Origin: Actinomycetes bacterium | GTDB taxonomy: Bacteria; Actinomycetota; Actinomycetes; S36-B12 | Assembly (NCBI GenBank): GCA_037130755.1 | Contig: JBAXSI010000010.1 | Span: forward strand, 16,351 to 80,350 | DNA length: 64,000 nucleotides | Direction of reading: 5' to 3' | Part shown: piece after piece, positions 1-17,921 of the stretch | How positions within the stretch are numbered: the stretch's first letter is position 1 | Layout of the letters: each line of letters starts with the position of its first letter | The notes under the pieces: generated by a model | The model's database searches: none | What the model saw: only the letters and a program-made list of their open reading frames with translations | What the model was told of the DNA's origin: nothing | Position numbers and translations under genes: made by a program

Positions 1-768
1 CAGACGGGCCCACGTGTCGTCGGTGAGCTGCACATCCCAGTAGTCGACCCACACCGCCGGGGACAGCAGGTAGCCCTCCTGCACGGTGGGCAGCTCAACG
101 TCGGCGGGCCGGCCGGTGAGACGGGCCTGCCATGCAGGCATCCGAGCGGGCGGGAACTGCCTGCGCAGCGAGACCGTGGTCTCGCTGACAGTGACCTCGA
201 GCGGAGGAGGTGCGTCCCCCAGCACCGCCGGCGAGATATCCGGCGCTACGAAGGGCACCTGGGTGACGTCGGCGAAGTTCTCGTGCAGGAGCAGGAAGCT
301 TGCGTCGACCGGACGGTCGCCGGCGACAGTCGCCCAGTCGGCGTCGACCAGCCACGGCAGCTCGGGAAGCCGATGCAGTCGCGCGCGACCGGGCTCGCCG
401 AACCAGGCCCAGACCAGGCCGTCGGACTCTCGGACCGGGTAGGCGTCGACGAAGGCCCCGAGCGGCACGCGTGCCTGTGTGGGCACGCCGATGCACTGGC
501 CGCCGGCGTCGTAGACGAAGCCGCACAGGCCGCAGCGGATGGTGTCGCCCTGGACTGTTCCTGCGCTCAGCGGATAGGCGCGATGTGCGCATCGGTCCTC
601 GAGTGCGACTGCCGTACCTGCGCTCGTGCGGAAGAGCACGACGGGTCGGCCGACGGCGCGTACTGACGTGAGCGAGTTCGTGATGTCGGCGGAGCGGGCC
701 ACCGCGTACCAGCAGTCGGTGGGCACCACCACGGCTGCGGCCACTCGTCCTTGGAATGACTGGGTCAT
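1..768 (-). CDS. Rieske non-heme oxygenase alpha-subunit-like protein (VanA-like), degenerate ligands; truncated by left window edge
   Basis: Not in ORF track; translated by hand from ATG at 768: MTQSFQGRVAAAVVVPTDCWYAVA...VVLFRT...ALEDRCAHRAYPLSAG...IRCGLCGFVYDAGGQCIGVP...YPVRESDGLVWAWFG...LLLHENFADVTQVPFVA; open to base 1; GGAC/GGA RBS-like sequence upstream. Confidence 0.88.
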   Translation of the reverse strand, partial: MTQSFQGRVAAAVVVPTDCWYAVARSADITNSLTSVRAVGRPVVLFRTSAGTAVALEDRCAHRAYPLSAGTVQGDTIRCGLCGFVYDAGGQCIGVPTQARVPLGAFVDAYPVRESDGLVWAWFGEPGRARLHRLPELPWLVDADWATVAGDRPVDASFLLLHENFADVTQVPFVAPDISPAVLGDAPPPLEVTVSETTVSLRRQFPPARMPAWQARLTGRPADVELPTVQEGYLLSPAVWVDYWDVQLTDDTWARL

Positions 769-781
769 GTTCCGTTGTCCC

Positions 782-1756
782 TTACAGGTCGATGACGAGT
801 CGGTTGCCGCGGCATCGGGAGACGCAGACCATCATGGTCTCGTTCGAGGCCTTCTCCGAATCACTGAGCACGACGTCGCGATGGTCGACCTCGCCTTCGA
901 TGATCTCGGTTTCACAGGTTCCGCACACACCCTCGTGGCAGGACCCGAGCACCGGGATGCCCAACTCCTCGACGGCATGGAAGATGCTCTTGCCCGGTGG
1001 CACCGTCAGCGTCTGGCCCGAGCGGGCCAGCACCAGCTCGAACTCGGTGTCCTGCGACTCGTCGAGCTCCTTGCCCTGGAAGCGCTCGAGATGCAGGGCA
1101 CCCTCCGGCCACGCCTTGCAGGCGTCCTCGACGGCCTCGAGCAGCGGCTCCGGCCCGCAGGTGTAGACCAAGGTGTCAGTCGCGGGAGTTCCGAGCAGCT
1201 CGACGATGCGCTTGCTGAGCGTCAACTCGACCTCGTCGCGCGGCAGCAGCAGCACCTTGTCGCCGTACTGGGCCAGCGCCGGCAGGAACGCCATCGAGGC
1301 ACGTGATCGGCCGCCGTAGACCAGCCGCCAGTCCGCGCCGACCGCCTCGGCCTCCTCGATCATCGGCAGCATCGGGGTCACCCCGATCCCCCCGGCGATG
1401 AACAGGTACTTCGGCGACGAGACCAGCGGGAAGTGGTTGCGGGGCCCGCGCACGCGCACGCTGCTCCCGACGGCGAGGTTGTCGTGGATGAAGACCGAGC
1501 CGCCTCGGCTGTCCTCCGCGCGCAGTACGCCCACCTGCAGGCTCCGACTGTCCGACGGCGAGGAGCACAGCGAGTACTGGCGCGTCAGGTTGTCGGTGAG
1601 TACCAGGTCGACGTGCGCCCCCGGAGTCCACGCAGGGAGTGTCTGGCCATCCGGGTGAGCGAGCGTGAGCACGACGACGTCTTCCGCGGCACGGTCGACC
1701 GCCGTGACGAGGAGGTCCGCCTCGTACTCCTTCAGCGTCGTGGAGGTTTCGGTCAT
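782..1756 (-). CDS. PDR/VanB-type oxidoreductase (FMN/NAD + C-terminal plant-type 2Fe-2S)
   Basis: RQYSL, GPRNHF, IAGGIGVTP, YTCGP, CHEGVCGTC...CVS motifs; ATG 2 nt after the P450 stop (ORF track extends it spuriously to 2509). Confidence 0.93.
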   Translation of the reverse strand: MTETSTTLKEYEADLLVTAVDRAAEDVVVLTLAHPDGQTLPAWTPGAHVDLVLTDNLTRQYSLCSSPSDSRSLQVGVLRAEDSRGGSVFIHDNLAVGSSVRVRGPRNHFPLVSSPKYLFIAGGIGVTPMLPMIEEAEAVGADWRLVYGGRSRASMAFLPALAQYGDKVLLLPRDEVELTLSKRIVELLGTPATDTLVYTCGPEPLLEAVEDACKAWPEGALHLERFQGKELDESQDTEFELVLARSGQTLTVPPGKSIFHAVEELGIPVLGSCHEGVCGTCETEIIEGEVDHRDVVLSDSEKASNETMMVCVSRCRGNRLVIDL

Positions 1757-1758
1757 GC

Positions 1759-3018
1759 CTACTTCGCCTTGACCCGTACCGGGAAGCGCTTGACGCCATT
1801 GACGAAGTTGCTGCGTACGCGCTCGATCTCTCCGGTCTGCTCGATGGAGGCAAGCCGCGGAAGCAGCTCCTCGAACAGGATCCGGATCTCGAGGCGGGCG
1901 AGGTTGGCGCCAAGGCAGCTGTGCGGGCCCTTGCCGAAGGTCATGTGGTCGTTCGGGAACCGGGTGAGGTCCAAACCGTAGGGGTCGGTGAACTTGTCCT
2001 CGTCGTGATTGCCTGACGCGAACCACATGACGACCTTGTCGCCCTCCTTGATGGTCTTGCCGTGCAGCTCGACGTCCTTGGTGGCCGTGCGACGGAAGTG
2101 GTAGACCGGTGAGGCGTACCGGATGAGCTCCTCGACCATGATCTGCGACTTGTCGAGGTTGTCGACGAAGTACTGCATCTGGTCGGGGTGCTCCATGAGC
2201 CCCTTCATCGACAAGGTGATCGCCTGTCGAGTCGTCTCGTTGCCTGCCACGACCAGCAGCAGGAAGTAGTTGTCGAAGTCGGTGTCGGTCAGCGGGACGC
2301 CGTCGTCGGGGAGGCGATTGACGATCTTGCTGACGAGGTCCTCGCCGTCGCCGCCCTTGCGCTGCTTGGCGAGCTCCCGGCCGTACTCGAAGATCTCCAG
2401 CGACACCGGGTTGCGGAACGGCAGGTGCTTGTAGTTCTGCGCCTCGTCGCTGTCGACCAGCACGTTCGATAGCTCCGGGTCGGAGAAGCCCACGATCGTG
2501 TTTCCCCACGTGATGAGCTGGGGGATCATGTCGTCGGGCACGTCGAGCAGTCGGGCGAGCACGTTGATCGGGAAGTCAGCAGCCAGGGCGTCGACGAAGT
2601 CAATGTCCTCACGTGCCAGGGCATCGTTGATCGAAACGCGGGCGAGGTCGCGAAGGAACTCCTCGTAGCGACGCAGCTGCGCAACGCTGAAGTCGCGCTG
2701 CAGGAGCTTGCGGAGGGCCTGGTGCCGAGAGCCGTCAGACTCGAGGATGGACCTGCGCAAGTCCTGGAACTCGGCCGGCGGCTCCTCGAGGTTCACGAAC
2801 TGCGTCGAGGTGAACGTCTCACCGTCCTTGTTGACCATTTCGATGTCGTTGTAGCGGGTCACCGACCAGAAGCCGTGGCCGTCGCTGTCGTTCTCGTCCT
2901 GCCAGTGCAGGGGGTCCTCTGCACGCAGCGTGTCGAACATGCCCCACGCCTCGTTGTTGACGAAGTAGTCGAGATTGGTGAGGTCGACTTCGCTGAGCGG
3001 CACGGGCTTGTGGTTCAT
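1759..3018 (-). CDS. cytochrome P450 (module A)
   Basis: AGNETT I-helix, EELIR (ExxR), FGKGPHSCLG heme motif; GAGGAG RBS before ATG 3018. Confidence 0.96.
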   Translation of the reverse strand: MNHKPVPLSEVDLTNLDYFVNNEAWGMFDTLRAEDPLHWQDENDSDGHGFWSVTRYNDIEMVNKDGETFTSTQFVNLEEPPAEFQDLRRSILESDGSRHQALRKLLQRDFSVAQLRRYEEFLRDLARVSINDALAREDIDFVDALAADFPINVLARLLDVPDDMIPQLITWGNTIVGFSDPELSNVLVDSDEAQNYKHLPFRNPVSLEIFEYGRELAKQRKGGDGEDLVSKIVNRLPDDGVPLTDTDFDNYFLLLVVAGNETTRQAITLSMKGLMEHPDQMQYFVDNLDKSQIMVEELIRYASPVYHFRRTATKDVELHGKTIKEGDKVVMWFASGNHDEDKFTDPYGLDLTRFPNDHMTFGKGPHSCLGANLARLEIRILFEELLPRLASIEQTGEIERVRSNFVNGVKRFPVRVKAK

Positions 3019-3056: not shown

Positions 3057-3866
3057 TCAGATGGCTTGCGAGTTGTCGGTCAGCAGGATGCCGCCGTTGA
3101 AGGTGGTGCCGACCTCGCAGAAGTAGCCGGCGATGATCTCGTCGACGGGAAGCAGCGATGCGGGCTCGTCCCACGGCGAGTCGAACAGGCTCAGTTCGGC
3201 GTCGCCGATCCACGGCTGGCCGAGGTCGAGATCGACGCCGCCCATCGTCACGACCTGGTTCATCGACATGCCTGCGCCCGGGACGAGGGAGGGCATGACG
3301 CGGTGGTGGAGCATCTTGTGGCCGTTGACGAAGCCGTTGCCGGGCGCAGGCTCGCGCAGTGTGACCTTGGCGGTCGCGAGCCGGTGGTCGTACGCGGCCA
3401 GTGACGCACCGAAAGTGCCGCCGGGAGCGATCCGCGCGGTGGCCTTCCCACGGGTGTAGGGCCGGGTGACATATGCGCTGCCGAGCTTCTTCGGGTAGCC
3501 CTGGAACCAGCCGCGCGCGATGGCGAAGTCAGTGGTGACCCAGATGAGGACGCATCGGCTGTACGTGACGCCCTGGTACTTGCATCGCACCACGACGAAC
3601 GCCTCGAGGTACTGGGACTTGATGGGGTCGAGCAGTTCCTCGAACGAACTGCTGCAGGACTGCCAGTCCGCCCAGATGAAGGCGACGGCACCGGGGTCCT
3701 CGTCGGCCAGCTCGACGTCGGGCGGGAGGATGGCGCGGACGTTGGCGGGATCGGTTCGGTATTCGACCGTGAGCAGGGTGCCGGAGTAATGCCAGGGCAT
3801 GTCCGGGATGACGGCACTGCGCCCGCTCTGCGTGTACGGCGGAAGGAAGCCCTGCGAGCTCGTCAC
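3057..3866 (-). CDS. acetoacetate decarboxylase-like superfamily protein
   Basis: PWHYSG, YLEAFVVV, ARGWFQGYPKKLG Schiff-base Lys motif; GTG start overlaps upstream TGA. Confidence 0.88.
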   Translation of the reverse strand: MTSSQGFLPPYTQSGRSAVIPDMPWHYSGTLLTVEYRTDPANVRAILPPDVELADEDPGAVAFIWADWQSCSSSFEELLDPIKSQYLEAFVVVRCKYQGVTYSRCVLIWVTTDFAIARGWFQGYPKKLGSAYVTRPYTRGKATARIAPGGTFGASLAAYDHRLATAKVTLREPAPGNGFVNGHKMLHHRVMPSLVPGAGMSMNQVVTMGGVDLDLGQPWIGDAELSLFDSPWDEPASLLPVDEIIAGYFCEVGTTFNGGILLTDNSQAI

Positions 3867-4741
3867 TTCTTCTCCTCGACGGTCGACGGGTAGAGGTCCT
3901 TGCTCGGAGTGCGGATGCCGCGGAACTCCCAGTCGCCTCCCATAGCGGTGGAGATGACCTCCTCGCTCTCGGTCGGCTGGGCGCCGCAGTCGTCGCGGAT
4001 GGCAACCGGCCCCTGCACGATCGTGTTGCTCAGGGTGCCGAGGCCCTCGACTTCCACCTCCACGACATCGCCCGGGTAGACGGTGCGCGAGAACGCCGGG
4101 GTGCCGGAGAACAGGATGTCGCCAGGCACCAGCGTGATCGTCCGAGCGATGTCGGCCACCAGGTAGTGCATGTCCCACTCCATCTCGGCCGTCGTGGAAT
4201 CCTGCTTCACGACCCCGTTCACCCGCGTCTGGATCCCCTTGTCGCGGAAGTCCCAGCCGGTGACAAGTCCCGGTCCGATGGGCGCAAGGGTGTCTGATCC
4301 CTTGACGCGCAGCATCGACCCGGCGTCGGTGTCGCGGAAGTCGTGCAGCCCGTAGTCGTTGCCCACGGTGTAGCCCGCGATGTAGTCGCCGGCCTCCTCG
4401 GGCGAGACGTTGCGACAGGTGCGGCCGATCACGATGACGATCTCGCCCTCGTAGTTCAGCCAATTGCACCGCTCCGGCCGCACCACGGCGCCCTTGTGCG
4501 AGTTGAGTGCCGTGATCGGCTTGTGGAAGTACGTCGGCGCGGGCGGCAGCTTCGTCATGAACTCCTGGGTGCGGGAGTCGTAGTTCAGGTGCACCGCGAT
4601 GATCTTCGTCGGCTCGCACGGCGGCAGGTGGATGGCGTCGTCGATGCCCACGATGCGGCCATCCGGCGCCACCAGCTCGTCGCCATGGCGCACGACCTGG
4701 ACGGGAGCACCCTCCAGCAGGATGCGGCGGTAGTCGGTCAT
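3863..4741 (-). CDS. fumarylacetoacetate hydrolase family protein (HpaG-like decarboxylase/isomerase)
   Basis: KIIAVHLNY, NYEGE, GYTVGND, KGSDT...PIGP, PGDILFSGTP motifs; ATGA overlap with upstream gene. Confidence 0.92.
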   Translation of the reverse strand: MTDYRRILLEGAPVQVVRHGDELVAPDGRIVGIDDAIHLPPCEPTKIIAVHLNYDSRTQEFMTKLPPAPTYFHKPITALNSHKGAVVRPERCNWLNYEGEIVIVIGRTCRNVSPEEAGDYIAGYTVGNDYGLHDFRDTDAGSMLRVKGSDTLAPIGPGLVTGWDFRDKGIQTRVNGVVKQDSTTAEMEWDMHYLVADIARTITLVPGDILFSGTPAFSRTVYPGDVVEVEVEGLGTLSNTIVQGPVAIRDDCGAQPTESEEVISTAMGGDWEFRGIRTPSKDLYPSTVEEKK

Positions 4742-5643
4742 ACAGCTACCCCCGAATGGGACCAACCTGTGCTCGGCCGGTCGAACCACACGTGCACCTG
4801 GCTGGTGCCGACGGAGTTCTCGTAGTCGCTGATCTGGACACCCGGTGCGCAGAAATCCTGCTCGCCGAGCGCCGCGGCCATCATGAGGTAGTGGGCGAAC
4901 TTGCCCTCGGGCCGGACCGTGAGGAAGTCGTCCATCGTCTCCAGCACTCGGTCATGCCGGCCCTCGGCAAACCAAGCGAGTCGCTCGTAGTCCATCTCGC
5001 GGGCCTTGTCGCTGACGATGTACTTCGGGTCTGATCGCTCCACCTCAGGGTTCAGCCGGATCTCACGCAATCCGTAGAACGTATGGGACAGCGAGCCGGT
5101 CGCGATGATGATGACCTTCCGATCCACGTCCGCGATCGCCTTTCCGATGGCCCGGCCGACCCTGAGGTAGTCCTCGGTGTCGGCGGTCTGGCACACGCTC
5201 ATCGAGAGCCAGCGCTTGTCGAGCCCCTTGCCGAGGTAGGACCACAGGTTGACAGAGGGGTAGTAGAGCGGAAGGTACTCATCGTCGATCGGTGTGATCC
5301 AGGTGCCGACCTCGTCTGCATGCGAGGCGATGGCATGCGCGAACTCCGCGTCGCCTTCCCACTCGTAGGGAATCTTGCTCATGCCGCGCGGCAGTTCCTC
5401 GGCGGTGAAAAAGCCCTTGCGATGCGCGTGCGCCGTAACGACAAACTCCACCGTCGTGAACCAGTGCGAGTCGAGCACCACGACCGTGTCGTAGTCCAGG
5501 GTCTCGAAGACGTCCTTGCGCAGCTGGTTCAGCGACGTGACCAGCGAGAGCTCGTTGCCCTCGTTCAACTCGCGGCGGGTGGTCTCGGGCAGCATGATCG
5601 TCGGGACATGCGACAGCAGCCCGGCGGCGACGAACTCTCCCAT
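4738..5643 (-). CDS. LigB-family extradiol dioxygenase, homoprotocatechuate 2,3-dioxygenase (HpaD)-like
   Basis: SHVPTIM, DSHW, TGSLSH motifs, C-terminal YENSVGT; adjacent HpaE-like ALDH. Confidence 0.85.
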   Translation of the reverse strand: MGEFVAAGLLSHVPTIMLPETTRRELNEGNELSLVTSLNQLRKDVFETLDYDTVVVLDSHWFTTVEFVVTAHAHRKGFFTAEELPRGMSKIPYEWEGDAEFAHAIASHADEVGTWITPIDDEYLPLYYPSVNLWSYLGKGLDKRWLSMSVCQTADTEDYLRVGRAIGKAIADVDRKVIIIATGSLSHTFYGLREIRLNPEVERSDPKYIVSDKAREMDYERLAWFAEGRHDRVLETMDDFLTVRPEGKFAHYLMMAAALGEQDFCAPGVQISDYENSVGTSQVHVWFDRPSTGWSHSGVAV

Positions 5644-5645
5644 TG

Positions 5646-7109
5646 CTATTCCTTCCAGCCGTTAGGCGCATAGACGGTGTTCTTGACGTCTGCATAGAAG
5701 TCGAAGGACCACAGGCCGCCCTCGCGGCCGACGCCCGACTTCTTCGAGCCACCGAACGGGGCCCCAAGGTCGCGTACGAAGAAGCAGTTCACCCAGATCG
5801 TCCCGGCGACGAGGTGCTTGGTGAACGCCTCAGCGCGCGGACGGCTGCCCGTCACGACGCACGCGGCCAGGCCGAACTCGGTGCCGTTGGCCAGTGCCAG
5901 CCCCTCCTCGTCGGTGCCGAACGTCTGCATGGTGAGGACCGGTCCGAAGACCTCCTGCGTGAGGATCTCGCTGCCCGTCTGTGCATCCCGGATCAGCGTG
6001 GGCTTGTAGTAATGCGTTCCGAGTTCGGTGTTGGCCTCGCCGCCGTACACGATGGTGGCACCGTCGGCTCGCGCCCGATCGACGAAGCCCTGCACCCTCT
6101 CGATGTGCTTGAGATGGATGTTGGGCCCGATCTGGGTCTCCTCGTCGCGCGGGTCGCCCTGTCGGATCTGCGCCGCACGCTCGGCGAAGCGCGCCGCGAA
6201 TGCATCCGCGATGCCGTCCTGTACGAGCAGTCGAGTGCCGGCAAGGCAGACCTGACCGGCGTTGTCGTACTGCTCGATCGCGAGGTCGATCGCGAGGTCG
6301 AGGTCGGCGTCGTCGAGGATCACGGTCGGACTCTTGCCACCCAATTCGAACGAGCAGGGGATCAGGTTCTCTGCCGCCGCACGGGCGATGACCTTGGCGG
6401 TCGGCACCGATCCGGTGAAGCAGATCCGCGACACGTCGGGGTTCAGCGTGAGCGGGGCACCTGCCTCGGCGCCGAGTCCCTGAACCACGTTGAAGACGCC
6501 GGCCGGCAGGCCTGCCTCGTGGGCCAGGTCGGCGAAGTACGAGGCGGTGAGCGGTGCCCACTCGGGTGGCTTGAGGACGACGGTGTCGCCCGACGCGAGC
6601 GCCGGGCCGATGCGCCAGGTGGCCAGCATGAGCGGGGCATTCCACGGCGTGATGACGACGGCCACACCGGACGGGTCCCACGAGACCACGTTGTCGTGGT
6701 CACGGGTCTGCCACACCGGATGGTGGAGCTTGTCGACCGCGTAGTCGGCGAAGAAGCGGATGTTCATCGCGACGCGTGGCATGACGCCGCGGCGGTGCGA
6801 ACGCAGGAGGGATCCGTTGTCGTGCGTCTCGATCTGCGAGAGCTCCTCGATGTGGGCCTCGATGTTGTCAGCGACGCGGTGGAGGATCTCCTGGCGCTCC
6901 ACCGGCGACATCCGAGCCCATCCAGGAAACGCGGCCTTGGCTGCCGCAACTGCGGCGTCGGCTTCAGCCTGACCGCCGCGGCTGACCAGCCCCAGTACGG
7001 ACCCGTCGACAGGGGAGACAGTCTCGAAGGTGCTGGTCGAGGCCACCCGCTGGCCACCGATCCAGTGGCGCGTGTCCACGTCGACACCTGCCACGGCAAT
7101 CGTCGTCAT
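5646..7109 (-). CDS. aldehyde dehydrogenase, hydroxymuconate-semialdehyde (HpaE/DmpC-like) type
   Basis: ITPWNAP, KPPEWAP, FELGGKSP, AGQVCLAG, CFFVRDL, GREGGLWSFDFY. Confidence 0.9.
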   Translation of the reverse strand: MTTIAVAGVDVDTRHWIGGQRVASTSTFETVSPVDGSVLGLVSRGGQAEADAAVAAAKAAFPGWARMSPVERQEILHRVADNIEAHIEELSQIETHDNGSLLRSHRRGVMPRVAMNIRFFADYAVDKLHHPVWQTRDHDNVVSWDPSGVAVVITPWNAPLMLATWRIGPALASGDTVVLKPPEWAPLTASYFADLAHEAGLPAGVFNVVQGLGAEAGAPLTLNPDVSRICFTGSVPTAKVIARAAAENLIPCSFELGGKSPTVILDDADLDLAIDLAIEQYDNAGQVCLAGTRLLVQDGIADAFAARFAERAAQIRQGDPRDEETQIGPNIHLKHIERVQGFVDRARADGATIVYGGEANTELGTHYYKPTLIRDAQTGSEILTQEVFGPVLTMQTFGTDEEGLALANGTEFGLAACVVTGSRPRAEAFTKHLVAGTIWVNCFFVRDLGAPFGGSKKSGVGREGGLWSFDFYADVKNTVYAPNGWKE

Positions 7110-7219: not shown

Positions 7220-7927
7220 TCAGGCGCTGTTGGCGACCTGGTCGAGGAAGGCGTCGACGAGCCGATGGGCGCGCTCGGCGGCGTCCTCCTGCTCGGCGAG
7301 CACGTGCTGATAGAGGATGTCGGGGTCCTGCCCATCGGCTGCGACCAGCTCGCGCCCACCGTTGCCGTACCAGCCCTGCAGCCCGTACGGGGTCAGCTCG
7401 GGATGGAATTGCACGCCAAGGTTCCGTCGAAGGATGAATGCCTGTGAGGCGAAGGAGTTGCGGGCGATCTCGTGCGCGTCCGGGGGCACTTGCCAGCGGT
7501 CGTAGTGGAACTGGAACCACGGACCGGAACTGACGATGTCCGGGAACTGGGTCCAGATGGATGCCCAGCCGATCTCGGCACGCGGAGCCGGCGCAACGGA
7601 GCCGCCATGGGCCCGCGCGAGCAGTTGACCGCCGAAACAGATGCCGAACACCGGGACGCCTGCGTCGTCGGCTCGCTTGAGCCACTCCAGTTCGGGAACC
7701 AGCCAGTTGCCGATCGTCGCGTCGTCCCAGGCACCCCATGGTGATCCCATGGGCACCAGCGCGTCGAAGTCCGTCGGGTCAGGGAAGTCGAAGGACACGT
7801 TCGGGGTGCTGAACTTCTCCGCCGGGACGATCAACTGCTCGACGACCTCATAGCCACGGTGCGCGAATCGCTCGGCGATCGGGCCGGCAGGACTGAGGTG
7901 GTCGTGCTGGAGAATCAGGACGCGCAT
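7220..7927 (-). CDS. class I glutamine amidotransferase-like (gamma-glutamylamide hydrolase), module A
   Basis: GICFGGQ nucleophile elbow and QFHPE (Cys-His-Glu triad); start MRVLILQH. Confidence 0.9.
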   Translation of the reverse strand: MRVLILQHDHLSPAGPIAERFAHRGYEVVEQLIVPAEKFSTPNVSFDFPDPTDFDALVPMGSPWGAWDDATIGNWLVPELEWLKRADDAGVPVFGICFGGQLLARAHGGSVAPAPRAEIGWASIWTQFPDIVSSGPWFQFHYDRWQVPPDAHEIARNSFASQAFILRRNLGVQFHPELTPYGLQGWYGNGGRELVAADGQDPDILYQHVLAEQEDAAERAHRLVDAFLDQVANSA

Positions 7928-7991
7928 GGACTGCTCATCTCGTGGCCAGATTTGCGTGACGAATCGGTGGACGGCGCATCCTAACTCTGTA

Positions 7992-8011
7992 ATCATGTGG
8001 GCCCGAACGAT
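7992..8011. promoter_or_regulatory. palindromic operator copy 2 (ATCATGTGGGCCCGAACGAT)
   Basis: 17/20 match to consensus palindrome, in the divergent GATase/GS intergenic region. Confidence 0.7.
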
Positions 8012-8059
8012 TTCGGTCACATTCCCTCATCCACGTGGTTCTACTGAAGGAGTTGTTGG

Positions 8060-9412
8060 ATGCAGCACGACCTCGCCGAGACCCGCCGCATCCTGGAGAC
8101 CCAGGGCATCGACATCGTCCGGCTCATCTACGCGGACCTGCTCGGCCTACCGCGGTCCAAGGACCTCCTCGTCTCGCAGTTGGAGCGCTCGGCGGCACAT
8201 GGTCCGGCCTTCTGCGAGGCCACGTGGGTCACGAACACGCGCGGTGGCGTCCTGACGGAAGAGGGCGGCATCGACGACGCGCTCCCCGACATGGTGTCCA
8301 AGCTCGATACCGACACGATCCGTCCCATCCCGTGGGTTCCGGGCGTCGCCTACGCGATCGCCGACATTGACAACCCCGACGGCAGCCGCAGCGAGATCGC
8401 GCCGCGCGCAGTGCTGCGCTCCGTGCTCGACGAGTACGACGCGCTTGGACTGACCCCCATCTGCGGTCCCGAGCTGGAGTTCTACTTCGCGGAGAAGGTC
8501 GACGGCACCTATCGACGCCTCCTGAACAAGACCGGACGGGTCTACATGACCGGCGCGCAGGTCGACCCCGACGGGCACTACCTCAACCTGCTGCGCTGCC
8601 TCGACCAGCTGAACATCGGAGCGTTCGCCGGCAATCACGAGTTCTGCCCATCGCAGTACGAGATCAATCTCTGGCACAGCGAGGCTATGGATGCTGCCGA
8701 CCGGACCTTCCTGTTCAAGACCAGCGTGAAGGACGTCCTGACCCGTAGTGGCGTGCTGGGCACCTTCATCGGCAAGCCCTGGGACGACGAGGGCGGCAGC
8801 GGCTTCCATCTGCACTTCTCGATGAACGACGTGGACGGCGTCAACCTGATGAGCACGCCCGACGGTGAACTGTCGGAGCTGGCCTACAACGTGATGGGCG
8901 GCGTGCTCAAGCACGCCAACGCCCTCGCTGCCTTCACCAACCCGACGGTGAACTCCTACAAGCGCCTCGGCCCGGACACCATGGCGCCGTACCGGAACAC
9001 GTGGGGGTATGACAACCGCTCGGCGATGATCCGAATCCCACCGGAGCGCGGGGCGGGCACGCGCTTGGAACTGCGTATCGGCGACGGATCGGCGAACCCC
9101 TACGTCGTCATCGCTGCGGTCCTCGCAGCCGCACTCGACGGCATCAAGAACAAGCTGTCAGCACCGGAGCCGGTTGTCGGCTGGTCATACACCGACAGTG
9201 AGCACGGCCAGGTCCTGCCGATGTCGTTGCCGGCGGCCCTCGATGCGCTGGAAGCAGATGTCGAGCTGAGCAACCACCTCTCAGCGAAGTTCATCCGGGC
9301 CTTTGCCGCGCTCAAGCGAGATGAGGCCAAGCGGTACGAGGAGGAAGTCGAGGATCCGAGCACCCGCCTCGTCACGCAATGGGAGCTCGACGAGTACATC
9401 GAGGATTTCTAG
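8060..9412 (+). CDS. glutamine synthetase-like gamma-glutamyl ligase (PuuA/IpuC-like), module A
   Basis: GPELEFY, HEFCPSQYEIN, GSGFHLHFS, NSYKRL, WGYDNRS, RLELR...ANPY; flap reads DTMAP (no Glu); AAGGAG RBS. Confidence 0.92.
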   Translation: MQHDLAETRRILETQGIDIVRLIYADLLGLPRSKDLLVSQLERSAAHGPAFCEATWVTNTRGGVLTEEGGIDDALPDMVSKLDTDTIRPIPWVPGVAYAIADIDNPDGSRSEIAPRAVLRSVLDEYDALGLTPICGPELEFYFAEKVDGTYRRLLNKTGRVYMTGAQVDPDGHYLNLLRCLDQLNIGAFAGNHEFCPSQYEINLWHSEAMDAADRTFLFKTSVKDVLTRSGVLGTFIGKPWDDEGGSGFHLHFSMNDVDGVNLMSTPDGELSELAYNVMGGVLKHANALAAFTNPTVNSYKRLGPDTMAPYRNTWGYDNRSAMIRIPPERGAGTRLELRIGDGSANPYVVIAAVLAAALDGIKNKLSAPEPVVGWSYTDSEHGQVLPMSLPAALDALEADVELSNHLSAKFIRAFAALKRDEAKRYEEEVEDPSTRLVTQWELDEYIEDF

Positions 9413-9473: not shown

Positions 9474-9518
9474 CACTTCTCCAAAGTGCTTGACCGCGCG
9501 TGACGAATGCGCCACCCT
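9474..9518 (+). promoter_or_regulatory. permease promoter: upstream motif CACTTCTCCAAAGT, -35 TTGACC, -10 CACCCT
   Basis: TTGACC 9490-9495 and CACCCT 9513-9518 are 17 nt apart; motif 9474-9487 recurs at 62316. Confidence 0.55.
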
Positions 9519-9523
9519 GTCCC

Positions 9524-9543
9524 ATCGTTCGGTCCCGTACGAC
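9524..9543. promoter_or_regulatory. palindromic operator copy 3 (ATCGTTCGGTCCCGTACGAC)
   Basis: 17/20 match to consensus; covers the predicted transcription start of the permease gene. Confidence 0.7.
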
Positions 9544-9572
9544 CCCCACCGCAGTTGCCGCCTGGAGGCCGC

Positions 9573-11147
9573 ATGTCCCAGAGGGAGAACCTCCCCGAGT
9601 CCGATCAGGTGCTTGGCGCTCCTGATCCGGAGACCACCGACACCACGCTAAGGCGAGGCACACTCGGCCTGCTGGGCGTCATCTTCTTCGTCGTCGCGGC
9701 GGCCGCTCCGTTGGCCGGCATGACCGGAGCCTTCCCCGTTGCCGTTGCCCTGGGCAATGGGGCCGGTGCGGCCGGCATGTACGTCGCAGTCGGTGTCGTC
9801 CTGCTGATCTTCAGCGTCGGCTACGCCACCATGAGCCAGTACGTCACCAACACGGGCGCCTTCTTCGCCTACGTGGGACGTGGCCTGGGCATCGGTCCCG
9901 GCGTCGGCTCGGCCTTCGTGTCGGTGCTCGCCTATCTCGCCGTCCAGTGGTCGGTGATCGGCTTCATCGGCTTCCAGCTGAAGCTCCAGTTCGTGGCCAA
10001 GTTCGGGATCGACCTCGAATGGTGGGTCTACTCCCTCGCCATCGTCGTCATCGTCTACCTTCTCTCGGCCCTCTCGGTGGACATCGGCGCGAAGTTCCTG
10101 GGTGTGCTGCTCACCTTCGAGGTGCTCGCCCTGATCATCGTGGGTGCCGCAGCCATCATCGACGGTGGCGCTGAGGGCGGCCCCAACTTCAGCGCGTCGT
10201 TCAGCCCCAGCGCGATCATGCAGGGTGGACTGACCGGCGGCGCGGGAATCGCGTTCGCGTTCGCGCTCGCCTCCTTCATCGGCTTCGAGGCCACGGCGAT
10301 CTACGGCGAGGAGTCCAAGGACCCGAAGAAGACGGTCCCGAGGGCGACGTACATCTCGGTTCTCCTGATCACGGCCCTGTTCGCCTTTGTGGGCTTCGGG
10401 CTGGTGACCGGACTCGGTGCGACGGACATCCAGAACAAGGTCTTCGAGGCCACCGCGGTCGACGGTGTTCCGCTGGCGGATCCGTCCGCCATGCTGTTCG
10501 GCCTCACGACCCACTTCGTCGGCCAGTGGCTGACCGAGGTGTTCGGCTGGATCGTGCTGACGTCGCTGTTCGCTGCGACGCTGGCCTTCCAGAACAGCGC
10601 GTCGCGGTACCTGTTCTCGATGGGCCGCGCCGGCGTCCTGCCGAAGAAGCTGGACCACACCAACAAGCAGCAGGCTCCGTTCGCTGCGACCACCGTGGTC
10701 TTCGTGCTTGCCGTCGTGCTGGTGATCGTCGCGATCATCTTCAAGTGGGACCCGATCCTGAACGTCTTCTACTGGTTCTCGTCCCTGTCGGTGATCGCCA
10801 TCGTCCTGACCGAGATCCTGGTCAGCATCTCGGTGATCGTGTACTTCCGGCGAACCAAGGAGGACACCCGCATCTGGAACGTCATGATCGCGCCAGTGCT
10901 GGCCATCATCGGTCTGGCCCTCGGCGAGTTCATGCTGATCAGCCGCTACAACCTGCTCGCCGGAGTGGCGCAGGATCCCGCCGCGTGCCCGGGCGAGCCC
11001 GGCTCGGGCTGCGGACCGTTCGAGATGAGCAGTCTCGGTTGGTTCCTCATCCTGCTGCCGTTCGTGGTCCTGGTCATCGGCTTCCTGGTCGGCCAACTGC
11101 GCCGCAAGAACGAGAACTACGACGCGGTGCACAACTTCATTTCGTAG
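9573..11147 (+). CDS. APC-family amino acid/amine permease
   Basis: About 12 hydrophobic segments, AAAAPLAG, FIGFEATAIYGEESKDPKKTVPRA; GGAGG RBS before ATG 9573. Confidence 0.93.
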   Translation: MSQRENLPESDQVLGAPDPETTDTTLRRGTLGLLGVIFFVVAAAAPLAGMTGAFPVAVALGNGAGAAGMYVAVGVVLLIFSVGYATMSQYVTNTGAFFAYVGRGLGIGPGVGSAFVSVLAYLAVQWSVIGFIGFQLKLQFVAKFGIDLEWWVYSLAIVVIVYLLSALSVDIGAKFLGVLLTFEVLALIIVGAAAIIDGGAEGGPNFSASFSPSAIMQGGLTGGAGIAFAFALASFIGFEATAIYGEESKDPKKTVPRATYISVLLITALFAFVGFGLVTGLGATDIQNKVFEATAVDGVPLADPSAMLFGLTTHFVGQWLTEVFGWIVLTSLFAATLAFQNSASRYLFSMGRAGVLPKKLDHTNKQQAPFAATTVVFVLAVVLVIVAIIFKWDPILNVFYWFSSLSVIAIVLTEILVSISVIVYFRRTKEDTRIWNVMIAPVLAIIGLALGEFMLISRYNLLAGVAQDPAACPGEPGSGCGPFEMSSLGWFLILLPFVVLVIGFLVGQLRRKNENYDAVHNFIS

Positions 11148-11205: not shown

Positions 11206-12441
11206 CTAGTTGCGTGCGGTCACCGTGGCGGGGAACGCGGCTATGCCGTTCACGAAGTTAGAGTTCGTACGGACGAGTGAGCCGGACTGCTCGAACCGGG
11301 TTCCTTGCTTGATCATCTCCTCCAGCAGCACGCGGATCTCCATGCGCGCGAGGGGCGCACCCAGGCAGTGGTGCGGTCCCTTGGCTCCGAACGAGACCTG
11401 CGGGGGCTTGATTTCACGAGTGATGTCGAATCGAAGGGGGGCCGCGAACTGTGTCTCGTCGAAGTTGGCGGAGCAGTACCACATCACGACCTTGTCGTTC
11501 TCCTTGATGGGCACTCCCGCGAGCTCGGCGTCGCGGGTGGCCGTGCGCCGCATGTGCATGACGGGCGTTGCATACCGGATGATCTCCTCCACCGCGTTCT
11601 CGACGAGTTCGGGGCGCTTGTACAGCAGGTCCAGCTGGTCTGGGTTGTCGATGAAGGCCTTCACGCCGTTGCTGATCGCAGTGCGTGTCGTCTCGTTGCC
11701 GGCGAACACGAGCACGTGGAACATGTTCTTGAAGTCGTAGTCGGAGAGCGCCTCGCCCTCGTAGCGAGCCTCCACGAGCGCCGTGGTGAGGTCGTCCTTC
11801 GGGTTGCTGGTGCGCTCGGCGCGCATCTTCCGGCCGTACTCGAAGAGGGCGTGGGAGGCCGGAGCGTTGAAGGGCAGCAATTCCAGTGGCGTGGTGTTGC
11901 CGTAGGCATCAGCCGGGACGCCGGTGGAGTCAATGAGCTCGTCGGACCACTGCACGAGCATGCCGGCGTCCTCTGGGGGCACGCCAAGGATGTTGATGAT
12001 CACGCGGATGGGCAGCGGCGCGCTGACGTCTTGAACGACGTCGATGCTTCCCTTATCGGCGGCCTGTCGAAGCAGTTCTGCGGCGATCTCGCGCGTGACG
12101 TCCTCGTAGCTCTTCACCTTGTGGCTGGTGAAGGCGGGGATGCCGAGCTTTCGCAGGCGGACGTGGTCGGGAGCGTCGGTGTCGACGATGGACCGACGTG
12201 CGTTCATCTGCTCCTCGGTGAGATCCGGCAGGTTCGTCATGCCCCGTGCATTGGAGTACGTAGCGGGGTCGCGGGTGACCGTGACGAGGTCCGCATATCT
12301 CGTCACCGCGTAGAACGGACGCCCCGCGTACATGCGCACGGCGATGGGCTCGTCGCGACGCATGCGGGCGAAGACCTCGTGGGGGATCCCGTTCGCGTAG
12401 GTGGCGGGGTCGGTGATGTCCACGTCGAGGGCGGCGGTCAT
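11206..12441 (-). CDS. cytochrome P450 (module B), paralog of 1759-3018
   Basis: AGNETT, EEIIR, FGAKGPHHCLG; shares LPF-x-P-x-S..FEYGR segment with the first P450; GGAG RBS (alternative GTG at 12456). Confidence 0.95.
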   Translation of the reverse strand: MTAALDVDITDPATYANGIPHEVFARMRRDEPIAVRMYAGRPFYAVTRYADLVTVTRDPATYSNARGMTNLPDLTEEQMNARRSIVDTDAPDHVRLRKLGIPAFTSHKVKSYEDVTREIAAELLRQAADKGSIDVVQDVSAPLPIRVIINILGVPPEDAGMLVQWSDELIDSTGVPADAYGNTTPLELLPFNAPASHALFEYGRKMRAERTSNPKDDLTTALVEARYEGEALSDYDFKNMFHVLVFAGNETTRTAISNGVKAFIDNPDQLDLLYKRPELVENAVEEIIRYATPVMHMRRTATRDAELAGVPIKENDKVVMWYCSANFDETQFAAPLRFDITREIKPPQVSFGAKGPHHCLGAPLARMEIRVLLEEMIKQGTRFEQSGSLVRTNSNFVNGIAAFPATVTARN

Positions 12442-12452
12442 GTCTGCTCCAA

Positions 12453-13415
12453 TCACGGGATGAGGACGAAACGGCCGGAGACCTGCCCGGCGTGAAGACG
12501 GTCGTGCGCGATCTGCGCCGACTCCAGCGGAACGGTCTCGATCTCCGAGTGGAGGTCGTGCTGCTGCGCGAGGGCGACCAGGTCGGCGAGCTGGTCTCGC
12601 GTGCCCCAGACCGACGTCATGAAGCGGGCCTCGTGCGGCACGGCGCCGAATCCGAAGGGGATGGTCCCGCCGTAGAGGCCGACCACCACCGCGATGCCCT
12701 GCCGGCGTACGTGGTCGCGTGTGGTCTGGAGCGTCGCCTCGGCCCCGACGAAGTCCACAACCGCGGTGAAGGAGCCGTCGACCTCGCCCGGCGCCACGGC
12801 CGCATCCGCCCCGAGTGACAGCGCCAGTTCGCGCTTCTCGGGTGAGGCGTCAACCACGACGACCTCGGCATCCGATCGGATCTTCAGGAACTGCAGCCCG
12901 AACTGGCCCAGGCCGCCGGCGCCGATGACGAGGGCCCGCGGGCGGGCAGCGTCCTTGATGGTGGCCAGCGTGTGGTCGATCGCTCGGTAGGCGGTCAGGC
13001 CGCCGCAGGCCAGGGGAGCGGCCTTCGCGGGATCGAGGTCACCCAGGGGGATGAGGTAGTACTCGTCGGGGACGAGCATCCGCTCCGCGTACCCGCCGTC
13101 GCGGAAGAGCCCTGCCTCGGTCGCGTTCGGGCAGATCATCTCCTGCTGGGACGAGCAGGCCCAGCAGTCCGGCTGCCGGCAGCCCCAGCACGCGTAGACC
13201 AGGACCGGGCCCAGACGCTCATGCCGGGCGGCCACCTCGTGGCCGAGGATGACGGGCAGTTTGGTCGCGTAGTCCCCGGCCGCCGCGTGCAGGTCCGAAT
13301 GGCAGATGCCACAGGCCAGGACGTCGACGACCGCTCCGCCCGACCCGGCGACGGGGTCTGGCACCTCGATGACGTCCAGCGGCTGCCCCGGTGCCGTCAG
13401 CACGGCTGCACGCAT
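12453..13415 (-). CDS. zinc-dependent alcohol dehydrogenase (MDR)
   Basis: CGICHSD, GHE, four-Cys structural Zn loop, GAGGLG NAD motif. Confidence 0.93.
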   Translation of the reverse strand: MRAAVLTAPGQPLDVIEVPDPVAGSGGAVVDVLACGICHSDLHAAAGDYATKLPVILGHEVAARHERLGPVLVYACWGCRQPDCWACSSQQEMICPNATEAGLFRDGGYAERMLVPDEYYLIPLGDLDPAKAAPLACGGLTAYRAIDHTLATIKDAARPRALVIGAGGLGQFGLQFLKIRSDAEVVVVDASPEKRELALSLGADAAVAPGEVDGSFTAVVDFVGAEATLQTTRDHVRRQGIAVVVGLYGGTIPFGFGAVPHEARFMTSVWGTRDQLADLVALAQQHDLHSEIETVPLESAQIAHDRLHAGQVSGRFVLIP

Positions 13416-13477
13416 GGGTAGGTCCCTTCAGGTGGGGTTGGCGGATTGCCGAAAAGGGACCCGCCCGAGTGACTGGC

Positions 13478-13505
13478 ACATTACATTTATCAAGTATCTA
13501 ATTTC
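13478..13505. promoter_or_regulatory. AT-rich putative GntR operator in divergent ADH/GS promoter
   Basis: CATTTATCAAGTATCTA; CATTTATCAA (13484-13493) is identical to 17891-17900. Confidence 0.6.
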
Positions 13506-13523
13506 AGGACTTCTGGAGGATTC

Positions 13524-17877: not shown

Positions 17878-17880
17878 CCG

Positions 17881-17902
17881 CTATTTGTATCATTTATCAA
17901 AC
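17881..17902. promoter_or_regulatory. putative GntR operator in 44-bp divergent ACAD/ALDH intergenic region
   Basis: TTTGTATCATTTATCAAA; shares CATTTATCAA with 13484. Confidence 0.6.
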
Positions 17903-17921
17903 TCGAGTGCGGAGGACTTCC

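Follow-up and report, generated by a model that had tools for sequence, protein, structure and literature searches.

The Rieske-like gene at one edge of this locus raises the question of how a 'dead' oxygenase persists beside a cytochrome P450 and a reductase. The defining features of a Rieske oxygenase are a 2Cys/2His cluster and the 2-His-1-carboxylate iron that it feeds, and both of these sites are altered in the gene studied here. The window (the whole stretch of DNA analysed, 64,000 nucleotides from an Actinomycetes bacterium) begins within this gene, which we call RieskeL (P0001); its parts and immediate neighbours are as follows.

1..768, minus strand: RieskeL (P0001), first 256 of 346 codons (open reading frame list, sequence, Pfam, AF2, Foldseek)
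G000:C2:16078-16350, minus strand: remainder of RieskeL, left of the window (full frame)
583..591, minus strand: first cluster motif, C60-A-H62 (sequence, relatives)
523..534, minus strand: second cluster motif, C79-G-L-C82, with Cys for the canonical His (sequence, relatives)
244..285, minus strand: former iron-site helix, H162-E-N-F-A-D167-V-T-Q170-V-P-F-V-A175 (sequence, DdmC alignment, relatives)
782..1759, minus strand: phthalate-dioxygenase-reductase-type reductase with flavin, NAD and plant-type 2Fe-2S domains (Pfam Fer2, NAD_binding_1, FAD_binding_6)
1759..3018, minus strand: cytochrome P450, CYP125/CYP124-like (Pfam p450; PDB CYP125MRCA 5e-102, CYP124 1e-74)

The initial annotation had described an intact frame that follows the reductase in an operon, and it was right on both counts. 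The open reading frame contributes 256 residues within the window, whose edge cuts it before its 3′ end, and the full frame (G000:C2:16078-17118, 346 aa) runs without a frameshift to a stop codon reached 270 nt left of the window; 13 nt separate the reductase stop codon from the RieskeL start codon. Four other metagenome runs from lakes or freshwater, some of which may be the source sample, have contigs that cover window positions 1-1000 with 0, 1, 2 and 6 differences; the population variants are seven substitutions and zero indels, and the ligand codons are unchanged. The variant sequence is no assembly artefact.

Direct reading of the sequence also bears out the variant cluster motif, C60-A-H62...C79-G-L-C82 (codons at 589-591, 583-585, 532-534 and 523-525, respectively, on the minus strand), where the Rieske ligand set would be CxH...CxxH (2 Cys + 2 His) and where the final His is replaced by a Cys encoded by TGC, two base changes away from CAC/CAT. 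Among 121 close relatives of RieskeL (61-99% identical), C60, H62 and C79 occur in all 121 and C82 in 120, and the C82 column is His in 95/95 canonical relatives (100%). At the iron site, E163-N-F-A-D167-V-T-Q170-V-P-F-V-A175 (244-282) has both His ligands substituted: Q170 and A175, each present in 119/121 relatives, align under the two His of the iron-site motif of DdmC (3gb4; phmmer, E 1.3e-23), and both columns are His in 100% of the 95 canonical relatives. These two replacements had been recognised at the outset, and a third ligand loss had been missed, at V302, where 99% of the 95 canonical relatives have Asp; a pairwise DdmC alignment sets the Asp-ligand column at Y299 instead, with no carboxylate in either case. 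D167, the bridging Asp of ENxxDxxH, is invariant (121/121), though both residues to be bridged are substituted. The protein has no 2-His-1-carboxylate site (Q170, A175, V302) and, judging from these residues, can no longer activate oxygen; with all three iron ligands replaced it must have a non-oxygenation role. Cys60/His62/Cys79/Cys82 most likely still carries a [2Fe-2S] cluster, probably of lowered potential.

The protein around these sites has the make-up of a Rieske oxygenase. Pfam recognises a Rieske domain (PF00355, 2.6e-18, 66 bits) and, barely above the cut-off of 23.5 bits, VanA_C (PF19112, 3.2e-5, 24.6 bits); with Rieske_2 these are the only Pfam matches at E <= 0.01, the CDGSH and Rrf2 families being absent. 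The AF2 model of the full-length protein (pLDDT 91.6, pTM 0.89) matches DdmC (TM 0.85) and GdmA (TM 0.83) in Foldseek, and a Rieske domain is followed by a VanA_C/helix-grip catalytic domain, as expected for proteins of about 340-370 aa of this type, with an FNR-Fd fusion (VanB/PDR-type) reductase directly upstream. Two other assignments fail. A Rieske-type ferredoxin would be a single domain of ~100-120 aa with 2 Cys + 2 His, whereas RieskeL has 346 aa, a conserved catalytic domain and 3 Cys + 1 His; for NirD/Rieske_2, PF13806 reaches 20 bits against a cut-off of 27, and four cluster ligands are present. NCBIfam offers no equivalog (top match methylsterol monooxygenase, 82 bits vs a cut-off of 600), and the ESM Atlas matches are generic Rieske/VanA clusters only. 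On the predicted model, RieskeL has the alpha3 VanA/DdmC-type Rieske oxygenase fold.

The conserved variant residues are not due to chance. Grouped at 90% identity, the proteins that carry the RieskeL motifs form at least 120 clusters, and a Nocardioides homologue is 65% identical; canonical ligand sets are confined to relatives at about 44% identity or below, and no close orthologue with all His ligands was found. The dN/dS of RieskeL (0.15-0.35, seven pairs) is like that of the neighbouring genes (reductase 0.15-0.45, P450 0.09-0.42), and positions conserved at >=95% number 55/126 in the Rieske domain and 74/206 in the catalytic domain. An alignment of homologues finds both the CxxC and the His losses conserved and, together with the whole frame, the dN/dS and the confident fold, sustains the original proposal of a Rieske homologue that has lost its oxygenase function, been repurposed and stayed under selection. 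The lost catalytic ligands, and one relative (L015) apparently frameshifted through the iron-motif region, might be taken to mean that the gene is a decaying pseudogene; the intact frame, the breadth and constraint of the family and the absence of indels among the variants make this next to impossible.

What has been lost, and in which order, is suggested by the wider subfamily. In a careful tree of 42 hand-picked rows, all reductase-linked proteins form one clade (support 100/99), within which the branching is P0126 + (clade A + (B + C)) (support 100/98), and RieskeL belongs to clade A. P0126 retains CxH..CxxH and both His, yet V302 and the YYxRV helix are present in it already; as a query against a phylum sample of 401 genomes it finds a close relative (44% identity) only in the window's own genome, the eight other matches being 31-34% identical. 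The 19 rows of sister clade B+C carry S/A79 and T82, which means loss of the second cluster motif, but retain H170. With the iron site lost in clade A and the cluster motif lost in B+C, sister clades in one gene context have shed different cofactors. Both clades conserve W240, D242, W244, F258, Y298, Y299, R301 and V302, which canonical relatives do not; Y298, Y299, R301 and V302 lie on the former ligand helix and W240, D242, W244 and F258 on two strands of the catalytic sheet, and, as placed by the ligand-helix alignment and helix periodicity, these residues probably line a pocket.

Because the sisters lost different cofactors and share the remodelled former active site, we tentatively favour, at what we judge to be slightly less than an even chance, a pocket-based, non-oxygenase accessory role for RieskeL in a pathway of glutamate-tagging of an amine and ring cleavage. 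The initial annotation had offered three guesses at function, of which one, the binding of a labile intermediate, agrees with the conservation of the remodelled pocket and points in this favoured direction. The ancestor would have been a VanA-like subfamily that looks like a two-oxygenase module with one common reductase; in the RieskeL lineage the Asp ligand would have been the first to go and the former active site would have been rebuilt. The rebuilt pocket may act on what the neighbouring P450 consumes or makes, by binding it, passing it on or processing it non-oxidatively, and the cluster would stabilise the Rieske domain and the reductase docking surface without itself forming the conserved functional core. 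A pocket-only role leaves two facts unaccounted for: the retention of all four cluster ligands in 120/121 clade A proteins, and the specific exchange of His for Cys, which takes two base changes. It could also be that clades A and B+C differ in function, in which case their comparison is less informative.

Retention of all four cluster ligands in 120/121 relatives is what would be expected if RieskeL were an electron relay, a low-potential 3Cys/1His centre passing electrons from the 2Fe-2S domain of the reductase to the P450(s), with the trimer acting as a large ferredoxin. The chemistry is reasonable: in work on the archaeal Rieske-type ferredoxin ARF of Sulfolobus solfataricus (Kounosu et al., 2004, as described in PMC2946596), a low-potential 3Cys/1His cluster assembles in the H64C variant, at the same His position as the C82 swap, and H44C is not tolerated. 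The reductase that always lies directly upstream is of the VanB/PDR type, from which VanA-type Rieske domains naturally receive their electrons. Cys82 and Gln170 also stand where two His end the His-Asp-His electron path of canonical enzymes. The relay is weakened by sister clade B+C, which has lost two cluster ligands in the same context with the reductase intact and in which no ferredoxin was seen in two loci; homologous reductases, moreover, reduce P450s directly as fusions (6kbh, 6laa, L037), and a conserved catalytic domain of about 200 residues is surplus to a relay's needs. The low-potential shuttle of the initial annotation is on this account possible but doubtful.

The reductase lies directly upstream of the Rieske gene in 39/41 loci of clades A-D, the remaining two being cut within 140 nt, and in 34/40 metagenome loci of canonical relatives; a P450 match is found in 34/41 and 17/40 of these loci, respectively. 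Reductase and Rieske frames overlap by 4 nt in two loci (L028, L037), and in the Tsukamurella locus L037 (clade D) the P450 and the reductase form one 927-aa open reading frame, after which comes the Rieske gene. The best PDB matches of the window reductase are CYP116B-fusion reductase domains (6kbh, 9e-82) and PDR (2pia, 1e-53), and its cofactor motifs are intact, as they are in clades without a Rieske cluster (Fd and RxYS 35/35, GxGxTP 33/35); no substitute ferredoxin gene was seen in clade B loci L016 and L022. Given these intact motifs, the missing clade B ferredoxin and the L037 fusion, the reductase apparently does not need the RieskeL cluster. We read the subfamily, from its sequences and gene order, as VanA-like, with canonical members that keep all ligands, a reductase that always precedes and a P450 usually near.

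So invariant a linkage to the reductase in all clades, start/stop overlaps included, would also suit a pure scaffold, in which a pseudoenzyme trimer serves the reductase, and possibly the P450 as well, only as a docking, stabilising or activating partner, and the cluster is purely structural. Iron ligands have been eroded repeatedly and independently elsewhere in the subfamily (His to Asn in clade D, His to Tyr in P0137, and also in P0160 and P0185), which suggests that oxygenase chemistry is often dispensable there. A scaffold needs none of the helix residues of the former active site that are conserved specifically in A and B+C, and we consider this explanation unlikely. A complex prediction for RieskeL with the P450 gave a score of 0.00 in two runs made without controls, and weighs neither for nor against a complex.

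Alpha3 Rieske oxygenases pass electrons between subunits, and a cluster-only subunit could feed an iron-only one; RieskeL might on this basis be the non-catalytic member of a hetero-trimer whose catalytic subunit is a VanA-like paralogue encoded at another site. A partner past the window edge, the third guess of the initial annotation, is not supported: the genes to the left include a MarR regulator, a peptidase C26 and a ferredoxin-reductase-like gene, with no VanA-like gene among them. A search of the 98%-complete genome at E <= 0.001 turns up no further VanA-like gene, its five other Rieske-domain open reading frames lie on other contigs, and clades A and B+C occupy orthologous positions in different genomes, all of which leaves the hetero-trimer extremely unlikely.

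Here and in loci L005 and L007, a MarR-family gene comes immediately after RieskeL, an arrangement that would fit a redox, iron or NO sensor whose labile, NEET/IscR-like 3Cys/1His cluster tells the adjoining MarR/HpaR-like regulator how the electron chain stands. The 3Cys/1His clusters of NEET proteins and IscR are reported to be labile or sensing, and a precedent is ThnY, a repurposed reductase-like regulator of tetralin genes (PMC4814904). The position of the MarR gene is unconserved, being distant from RieskeL or on the opposite strand in most loci; the sister clade lacks the cluster, and Pfam finds no DNA-binding or signalling domain in RieskeL. A sensor is very unlikely.

The pathway of the favoured reading is suggested by the rest of the cluster.

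3057..3830, minus strand: acetoacetate-decarboxylase-family (MppR-like) protein (NCBIfam MppR 9e-53, below cut-off; PDB 4jm3 9e-49)
3863..4744, minus strand: fumarylacetoacetate-hydrolase-family (HpaG-like) protein (family match)
4738..5643, minus strand: LigB-type extradiol dioxygenase, HpaD-like (NCBIfam HpaD_Fe 8.5e-38, below cut-off; PDB 8iq8 2e-18)
5646..7109, minus strand: aldehyde dehydrogenase, HpaE-like (NCBIfam HpaE 7.6e-153, 510 bits < 638 cut-off)
7220..8020, minus strand: class-I glutamine amidotransferase/peptidase C26-like protein, candidate gamma-glutamyl-amide hydrolase
8060..9412, plus strand: glutamine-synthetase-like ligase, candidate gamma-glutamyl-amine synthetase (Pfam Gln-synt_C 1e-88; PDB glutamine synthetases)
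9507..11147, plus strand: amino-acid/amine permease

All Hpa-type family matches fall below curated cut-offs. Sister-clade loci hold the same types of gene (glutamine-synthetase-like ligase, glutamine amidotransferase/peptidase C26, permease, LigB dioxygenase, aldehyde dehydrogenase, fumarylacetoacetate hydrolase and acetoacetate-decarboxylase-like protein), the ligase type being directly upstream of the P450. In the pathway that we infer, an aromatic amine would be tagged with glutamate and hydroxylated, and the catechol ring opened; the cluster has the look of an amine catabolic route as yet undescribed, in actinobacteria that abound in freshwater and soil. The oestrogen (aed) cluster of Rhodococcus B50, which combines a P450 with a meta-cleavage enzyme, was considered as a parallel and set aside as a different system, being rich in beta-oxidation genes and with 'Rieske' occurring 0 times in the text of its description (PMC8085986). 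Literature outside subscription journals yielded no match for a P450 and a Rieske protein together with homoprotocatechuate, accessory-protein or gamma-glutamyl systems.

A specific chemistry can be proposed for the pocket, one that we rate as quite unlikely: RieskeL would be a metal-free lyase (Tyr298, Tyr299, Arg301, Asp242) converting a stable, P450-made carbinolamide to aldehyde and glutamine, with the cluster serving structure and docking only. The P450 would hydroxylate the carbon beside the amide nitrogen of a gamma-glutamyl-arylalkylamine, and RieskeL would descend from O-/N-dealkylating Rieske oxygenases whose pocket formerly held such hemiaminals. Such a lyase, if real, would be a new activity on the Rieske oxygenase fold as well as the first natural Rieske-fold 3Cys/1His cluster.

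What appears to be new here is a VanA-like subfamily tied to a reductase and containing sister clades of different cofactor loss, a description that draws on sequence comparison. Within one operon context it offers an evolutionary series from canonical to Asp-less proteins and on to either a 3Cys/1His cluster without an iron site or part of an iron site without a cluster. In literature outside subscription journals we found neither a natural Rieske-fold 3Cys/1His site nor an oxygenase-dead Rieske homologue; RieskeL would be a natural test of such a cluster in the Rieske fold, so far seen in that literature only in the engineered archaeal ferredoxin (PMC2946596). There is also a consequence for annotation, as the database labels of RieskeL-type proteins, 'aromatic ring-hydroxylating dioxygenase subunit alpha' or 'vanillate O-demethylase', cannot be right if the residues are read as above.

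Among known systems, RieskeL shares its fold with DdmC (3gb4), GdmA (7qwt) and VanA, alpha3 Rieske oxygenases served by PDR/VanB-type reductases (sequence matches to DdmC at E 1.3e-23 and GdmA at E 1.2e-21). It has in common with them the Rieske and VanA_C domains, the bridging Asp167, the first cluster motif and the type of adjoining reductase, and differs in CxxC for CxxH, in three substituted iron ligands, in the conserved YYxRV on the former active-site helix and in its P450 operon setting. In NirD/Rieske_2-type domains the Rieske fold persists without a cluster, as it does in sister clade B+C, whereas NEET and IscR have the 3Cys/1His ligand set of RieskeL on unrelated folds. ARF H64C is an engineered small ferredoxin; RieskeL, in contrast, is natural and conserved and has a full oxygenase catalytic domain, and its cluster is predicted. 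The CYP116B self-sufficient P450s (P450-RhF class; 6kbh, 6laa) have the reductase domain closest to the neighbour of RieskeL, but are P450-reductase fusions, whereas the P450 of the window is separate and CYP125/124-like; CYP116B enzymes are not known to have a Rieske partner. In peptide amidation by PHM/PAL, hydroxylation and bond cleavage reside on separate proteins, as the lyase proposal would have it for the P450 and RieskeL. A glutamine-synthetase-like enzyme is likewise combined with a P450 in the Ipu route for isopropylamine. The gamma-glutamylation of aniline and 1-naphthylamine (PMC11335346) reportedly employs a glutamine-synthetase-like ligase, an amidohydrolase and a Rieske dioxygenase with its reductase. 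Gamma-glutamylation routes and the window have in common the ligase, a class-I amidotransferase-type hydrolase, a permease, an oxygenase with a fused-type reductase and ring-cleavage genes; unlike the aniline/1-naphthylamine route, the window would employ a P450 as the hydroxylase, beside a Rieske component that appears to be oxygenase-dead.

RieskeL, the Rieske-oxygenase-like protein (P0001) encoded on the minus strand at window 1..768 (ATG at 766-768), is open at the left window edge; the window corresponds to G000:C2:16351-80350, and once 16 kb to its left are added the frame reaches a stop, giving a complete protein of 346 amino acids. The initial annotation had described a 3Cys/1His cluster motif and an iron site stripped of its histidines, and direct codon reading of the minus strand, as reverse complement, returns the same residues: C60 (589-591), H62 (583-585), C79 (532-534) and C82 (TGC, 523-525), with H162-E-N-F-A-D167-V-T-Q170-V-P-F-V-A175 at 244-285. 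Pfam matches are to the Rieske domain (2.6e-18) and the VanA_C catalytic domain (24.6 bits, cut-off 23.5), the closest solved structures are dicamba monooxygenase DdmC (1.3e-23) and guaiacol demethylase GdmA (7qwt), and the AlphaFold model (pLDDT 91.6, pTM 0.89; alignment of 121 relatives) superposes full-length on DdmC (TM 0.85). In the pairwise alignment Q170 and A175 fall under both iron-binding His of DdmC. The column of the third iron ligand, Asp in 99% of 95 canonical relatives (VanA-like proteins with CxH..CxxH and two iron His), holds V302 in RieskeL; the pairwise DdmC alignment places the Asp ligand at Y299 instead, and neither position has a carboxylate. By sequence, O2 activation at a 2-His-1-carboxylate iron is excluded for RieskeL.

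These ligand states are strongly conserved. With RieskeL as query, a word-indexed protein search scored 7999 candidates, 598 of which reached E <= 0.001; the best 120 listed (61-99% identity, 332-364 amino acids) were aligned with the query (n=121). Among these 121, C60, H62, C79 and D167 are each kept throughout, C82 in 120 (the exception has Ser), Q170 in 119 (two Lys) and A175 in 119, so that the CxxC and both His losses first noted in this single gene hold across these relatives. The catalytic domain of the family is constrained nearly as much as the Rieske domain (74/206 versus 55/126 positions at least 95% conserved). Nei-Gojobori dN/dS values, rough because dS is near saturation, are 0.15-0.35 for RieskeL (7 pairs from 9 hand-chosen sequences); on the same pairs the reductase gives 0.15-0.45 and the P450 0.09-0.42. 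Conservation and selection together refute the reading of RieskeL as a decaying pseudogene, to which we assign negligible probability. Window 1-1000 is also present in contigs of four other lake/freshwater metagenome runs, some possibly the source of the assembly, at 0-6 substitutions, with no indels and no substitution in ligand codons. Population variants over the four runs comprise 7 substitutions in 1000 nt (window 304-748), by codon reading 4 synonymous and 3 nonsynonymous (Q73H, A149T, D151N), the latter all at family-variable positions. One orthologue from RieskeL's own clade (L015:8001-9012) reads through its iron-motif region in the wrong register (FCSTRASPTPRC...), in a frameshift-like manner; the cause is either genuine pseudogenization or a fault of assembly, and L015 was excluded from the trees.

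A search of genome contigs confirmed 578 loci, of which the 80 best were taken; ligand columns, read in L003-L050, distinguish four clades of relatives:

Clade A (RieskeL's own): L003-L014 and the frameshifted-looking L015; uncultured Actinomycetota; CxH..CGLCG, Q/K at 170, A/V at 175
Clade B: L016-L027; mostly Propionibacteriaceae MAGs; CxH..(S/A)xYTG with the second cluster motif lost, H170 kept, mostly D at 175
Clade C: L028-L032, L034, L041; Nocardioidaceae; Rieske and iron sites like clade B
Clade D: L033, L035-L040, L042, L043; Tsukamurella, Gordonia, Jongsikchunia, Marmoricola; Rieske site canonical, N at the first iron His

Clades B and C (L016-L032, L034, L041) thus retain CxH, carry (S/A)xYTG in place of CxxH, and pair His170 with mostly Asp175 (frequencies over 19 rows: S79 0.79, T82 0.74, H170 1.00, D175 0.89); they may represent a cluster-less metal site on a Rieske oxygenase fold. 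When 1.84 billion cluster representatives were searched exhaustively, 9441 matched at E <= 0.001, and among the best 150 the 103 of at least 320 amino acids were aligned. All six canonical Cys/His ligands are present in 96 of these 103, the CxxC/Q/A pattern occurs in one (P0123), and in the remainder a different single ligand is lost (P0137, His to Tyr; P0160, P0171, P0185, P0125, P0129). The near-clade VanA-like proteins P0137 (a cluster of 241 members), P0160, P0185 and P0171 show single changes of the first iron His to Tyr/Asn, the second His to Thr/Leu, or the Rieske His to Arg. Ligand erosion seems recurrent in the VanA-like subfamily around RieskeL.

A quick tree of 71 rows (L003-L061 minus L015, plus 12 representatives; L062-L082, which match over the N-terminal half only, were omitted) and a careful tree of 42 rows picked to represent each group are concordant. 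All reductase-linked proteins form a single clade (100/99), one half of which groups P0126 + (A + (B + C)) (100/98; A 100/99, B+C 100/99), the other half holding canonical module proteins, clade D, P0128, P0131, P0137 and P0160. P0126, 44% identical to RieskeL, keeps CxH..CxxH and both iron His, with V already in place of the Asp ligand and the YYxRV helix present, and shares most of the residues conserved in A (at least 95%) and B+C (at least 90%) and not in canonical relatives, which include F165, E196, T197, W213, W240, D242, W244, F258, Y298, Y299, R301 and V302. V302 follows Y298 and Y299 by one helical turn, on the helix bearing the Asp ligand in canonical enzymes, and from helix periodicity we infer that the two tyrosines face the former iron site. 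By parsimony with canonical outgroups, the first change would have been Asp to Val with pocket changes, common to P0126, A, B and C; clade A would next have lost both iron His and exchanged its cluster His for Cys, and B+C would have lost the second cluster motif and replaced the second iron His by Asp. A metagenome scan with P0126 yielded 40 loci (L093-L132, 44-58% identity to P0126), of which 38 (L093-L130) were aligned and L131 and L132 left out: CxH..CxxH and the first iron His are present in 38/38, the second iron His in all 37 that reach the position, and Asp in 29 of the 30 covering its column (L111 has Arg, in a frameshift-like stretch).

The genes around RieskeL are as follows:

5646-7109, minus strand, HpaE-like ALDH
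4738-5643, minus strand, LigB/HpaD-like dioxygenase
3863-4744, minus strand, FAH-family protein
3057-3830, minus strand, MppR/ADC-like protein
1759-3018, minus strand, P450
782-1759, minus strand, reductase
1-768, minus strand, RieskeL
left of the window, minus strand, MarR/HpaR-like regulator
7220-8020, divergent from the minus-strand run, amidotransferase/peptidase-C26-like gene
8060-9412, divergent likewise, glutamine-synthetase (GS)-like ligase
9507-11147, divergent likewise, permease
11206-12456, minus strand, second P450
12453-13415, minus strand, Zn-ADH
13524-14867, plus strand, second GS-like ligase
14868-15575, plus strand, second amidotransferase-like gene
L002:7914-9551 (left of the window), TPP-dependent enzyme
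L002:9583-11127 (left of the window), 514-aa ORF, no Pfam match
L002:11196-12647 (left of the window, G000:C2), pyridoxal-dependent decarboxylase (aromatic amino acid type)

By gene content the pathway resembles glutamate-tagging amine routes and would feed catechol meta-cleavage; the ring-cleavage substrate can be called only 'homoprotocatechuate-like', because all Hpa-type family matches are below curated cut-offs. One such route, with a P450, is the Ipu route for isopropylamine. Another is the aniline/naphthylamine route (PMC11335346). The genes at L002:7914-12647 are in keeping with aromatic amines as a theme; a ferredoxin-reductase-like gene lies at L002:13399-14589, with no ferredoxin gene noted beside it. 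A second amine module, Ipu-like in type, occupies window 11206-21552: besides the P450, Zn-ADH, GS-like ligase and amidotransferase-like gene listed above, it includes a family III CoA-transferase and an acyl-CoA dehydrogenase, together with two aldehyde dehydrogenases and a GntR/FCD regulator.

Window proteins were compared by tblastn with 41 loci (L003-L043; matches covering at least 50% of the query). The reductase is directly upstream on the same strand in 39/41, L021 and L043 having <140 nt upstream, and a P450 match occurs in 34/41, being absent from L018 (full flanks) and from L019, L020, L021, L025, L026 and L043 (short flanks); the canonical outgroup loci L044-L050 have a P450 match in 0/7 and a reductase match in 1/7. 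The invariant linkage to the reductase would fit RieskeL as a pure scaffold, a role we consider rather improbable. In clades B and C the P450 is immediately preceded by the GS-like ligase, and the reductase has the amidotransferase-like gene as a neighbour. Two clade B loci have a flavin-reductase-like/FCD (GntR-type ligand-binding) fusion with no HTH match between P450 and reductase (L016:5167-6126, L022:5062-6021), adjoined in clade B loci by a DUF2218 protein; no ferredoxin gene lies between P450 and reductase in L016 or L022. L022:1718-3307 encodes a 529-aa ORF with TIR and glycerophosphodiester phosphodiesterase domains. Plant-type ferredoxin cysteines and the RxYS motif of the reductase are kept in 35/35 across all clades and GxGxTP in 33/35, including clades B and C, whose Rieske partner has no cluster to reduce.

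Beside the canonical metagenome genes (L093-L132) the reductase is directly upstream in 34/40 (52-59% identity to that of the window), with a P450 match in 17/40 (21-36% identity), 13 of these directly upstream on the same strand. With reductase and P450 beside canonical Rieske genes, the ancestral module therefore looks like a P450 and a Rieske oxygenase sharing a single reductase. In Tsukamurella sp. 1534 (L037:5206-9032, clade D) P450 and reductase are one 927-aa ORF, a CYP116B-type fusion, with the Rieske gene next (4-nt overlap); consistent with this, the window reductase finds its best PDB matches in 6kbh and 6laa, in both cases with the reductase domain. The clade D VanA-like protein has a canonical Rieske site and Asn for the first iron His (DL(T/S)N...MH...D); a Rieske protein conserved alongside a self-sufficient P450 may merit separate study.

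RieskeL is likely to bind a cluster, because all four ligand positions persist with the canonical spacing and the swap is tolerated in Sulfolobus ARF: in H64C, with Cys at the same position as C82, a low-potential [2Fe-2S] cluster still forms, and a Cys swap at the other His is not tolerated (PMC2946596). The weightiest evidence on function is the sister-clade comparison. In the same operon context and with an intact reductase, B+C have dispensed with the cluster and clade A with the iron site, the former active site being rebuilt in both; because both keep the rebuilt pocket and lose different cofactors, the simplest reading is a shared function in the pocket that needs neither. We tentatively favour, at somewhat under even confidence, such a cofactor-independent function, with the clade A cluster kept for domain stability and reductase docking; the pocket might bind a ligand, hand over to or from the P450, or perform a non-oxidative step on the P450 product. 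Electron relay to the P450 best accounts for the strict conservation of the four cluster ligands, yet the cluster-less B+C clade contradicts it, as does the direct reduction of the P450 in fused homologues, and we hold it unlikely. A sensor, which would suit labile 3Cys/1His chemistry and the adjacent MarR gene in some loci, seems very improbable. Still fainter is the prospect of a hetero-trimer partner, as no paralogue was found: no second VanA-like gene occurs in the 98%-complete genome that carries RieskeL, and the five other Rieske-domain ORFs of this genome are all on other contigs.

In the literature searched, with most subscription journals outside the search, we found neither a natural Rieske-fold 3Cys/1His site or oxygenase-dead Rieske homologue nor the RieskeL operon combination. 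The present analysis contributes a comparison between the sister clades, canonical ancestors that have the same reductase, and clade D with its fusion. Database names for relatives are generic ('Rieske 2Fe-2S domain-containing protein', 'vanillate O-demethylase monooxygenase subunit', 'aromatic ring-hydroxylating dioxygenase subunit alpha'), and filing or annotating RieskeL as an oxygenase is inappropriate: it has its fold and reductase partner in common with VanA/DdmC-type oxygenases, but lacks the 2Cys/2His set of cluster ligands as well as the iron triad, two features that define them.
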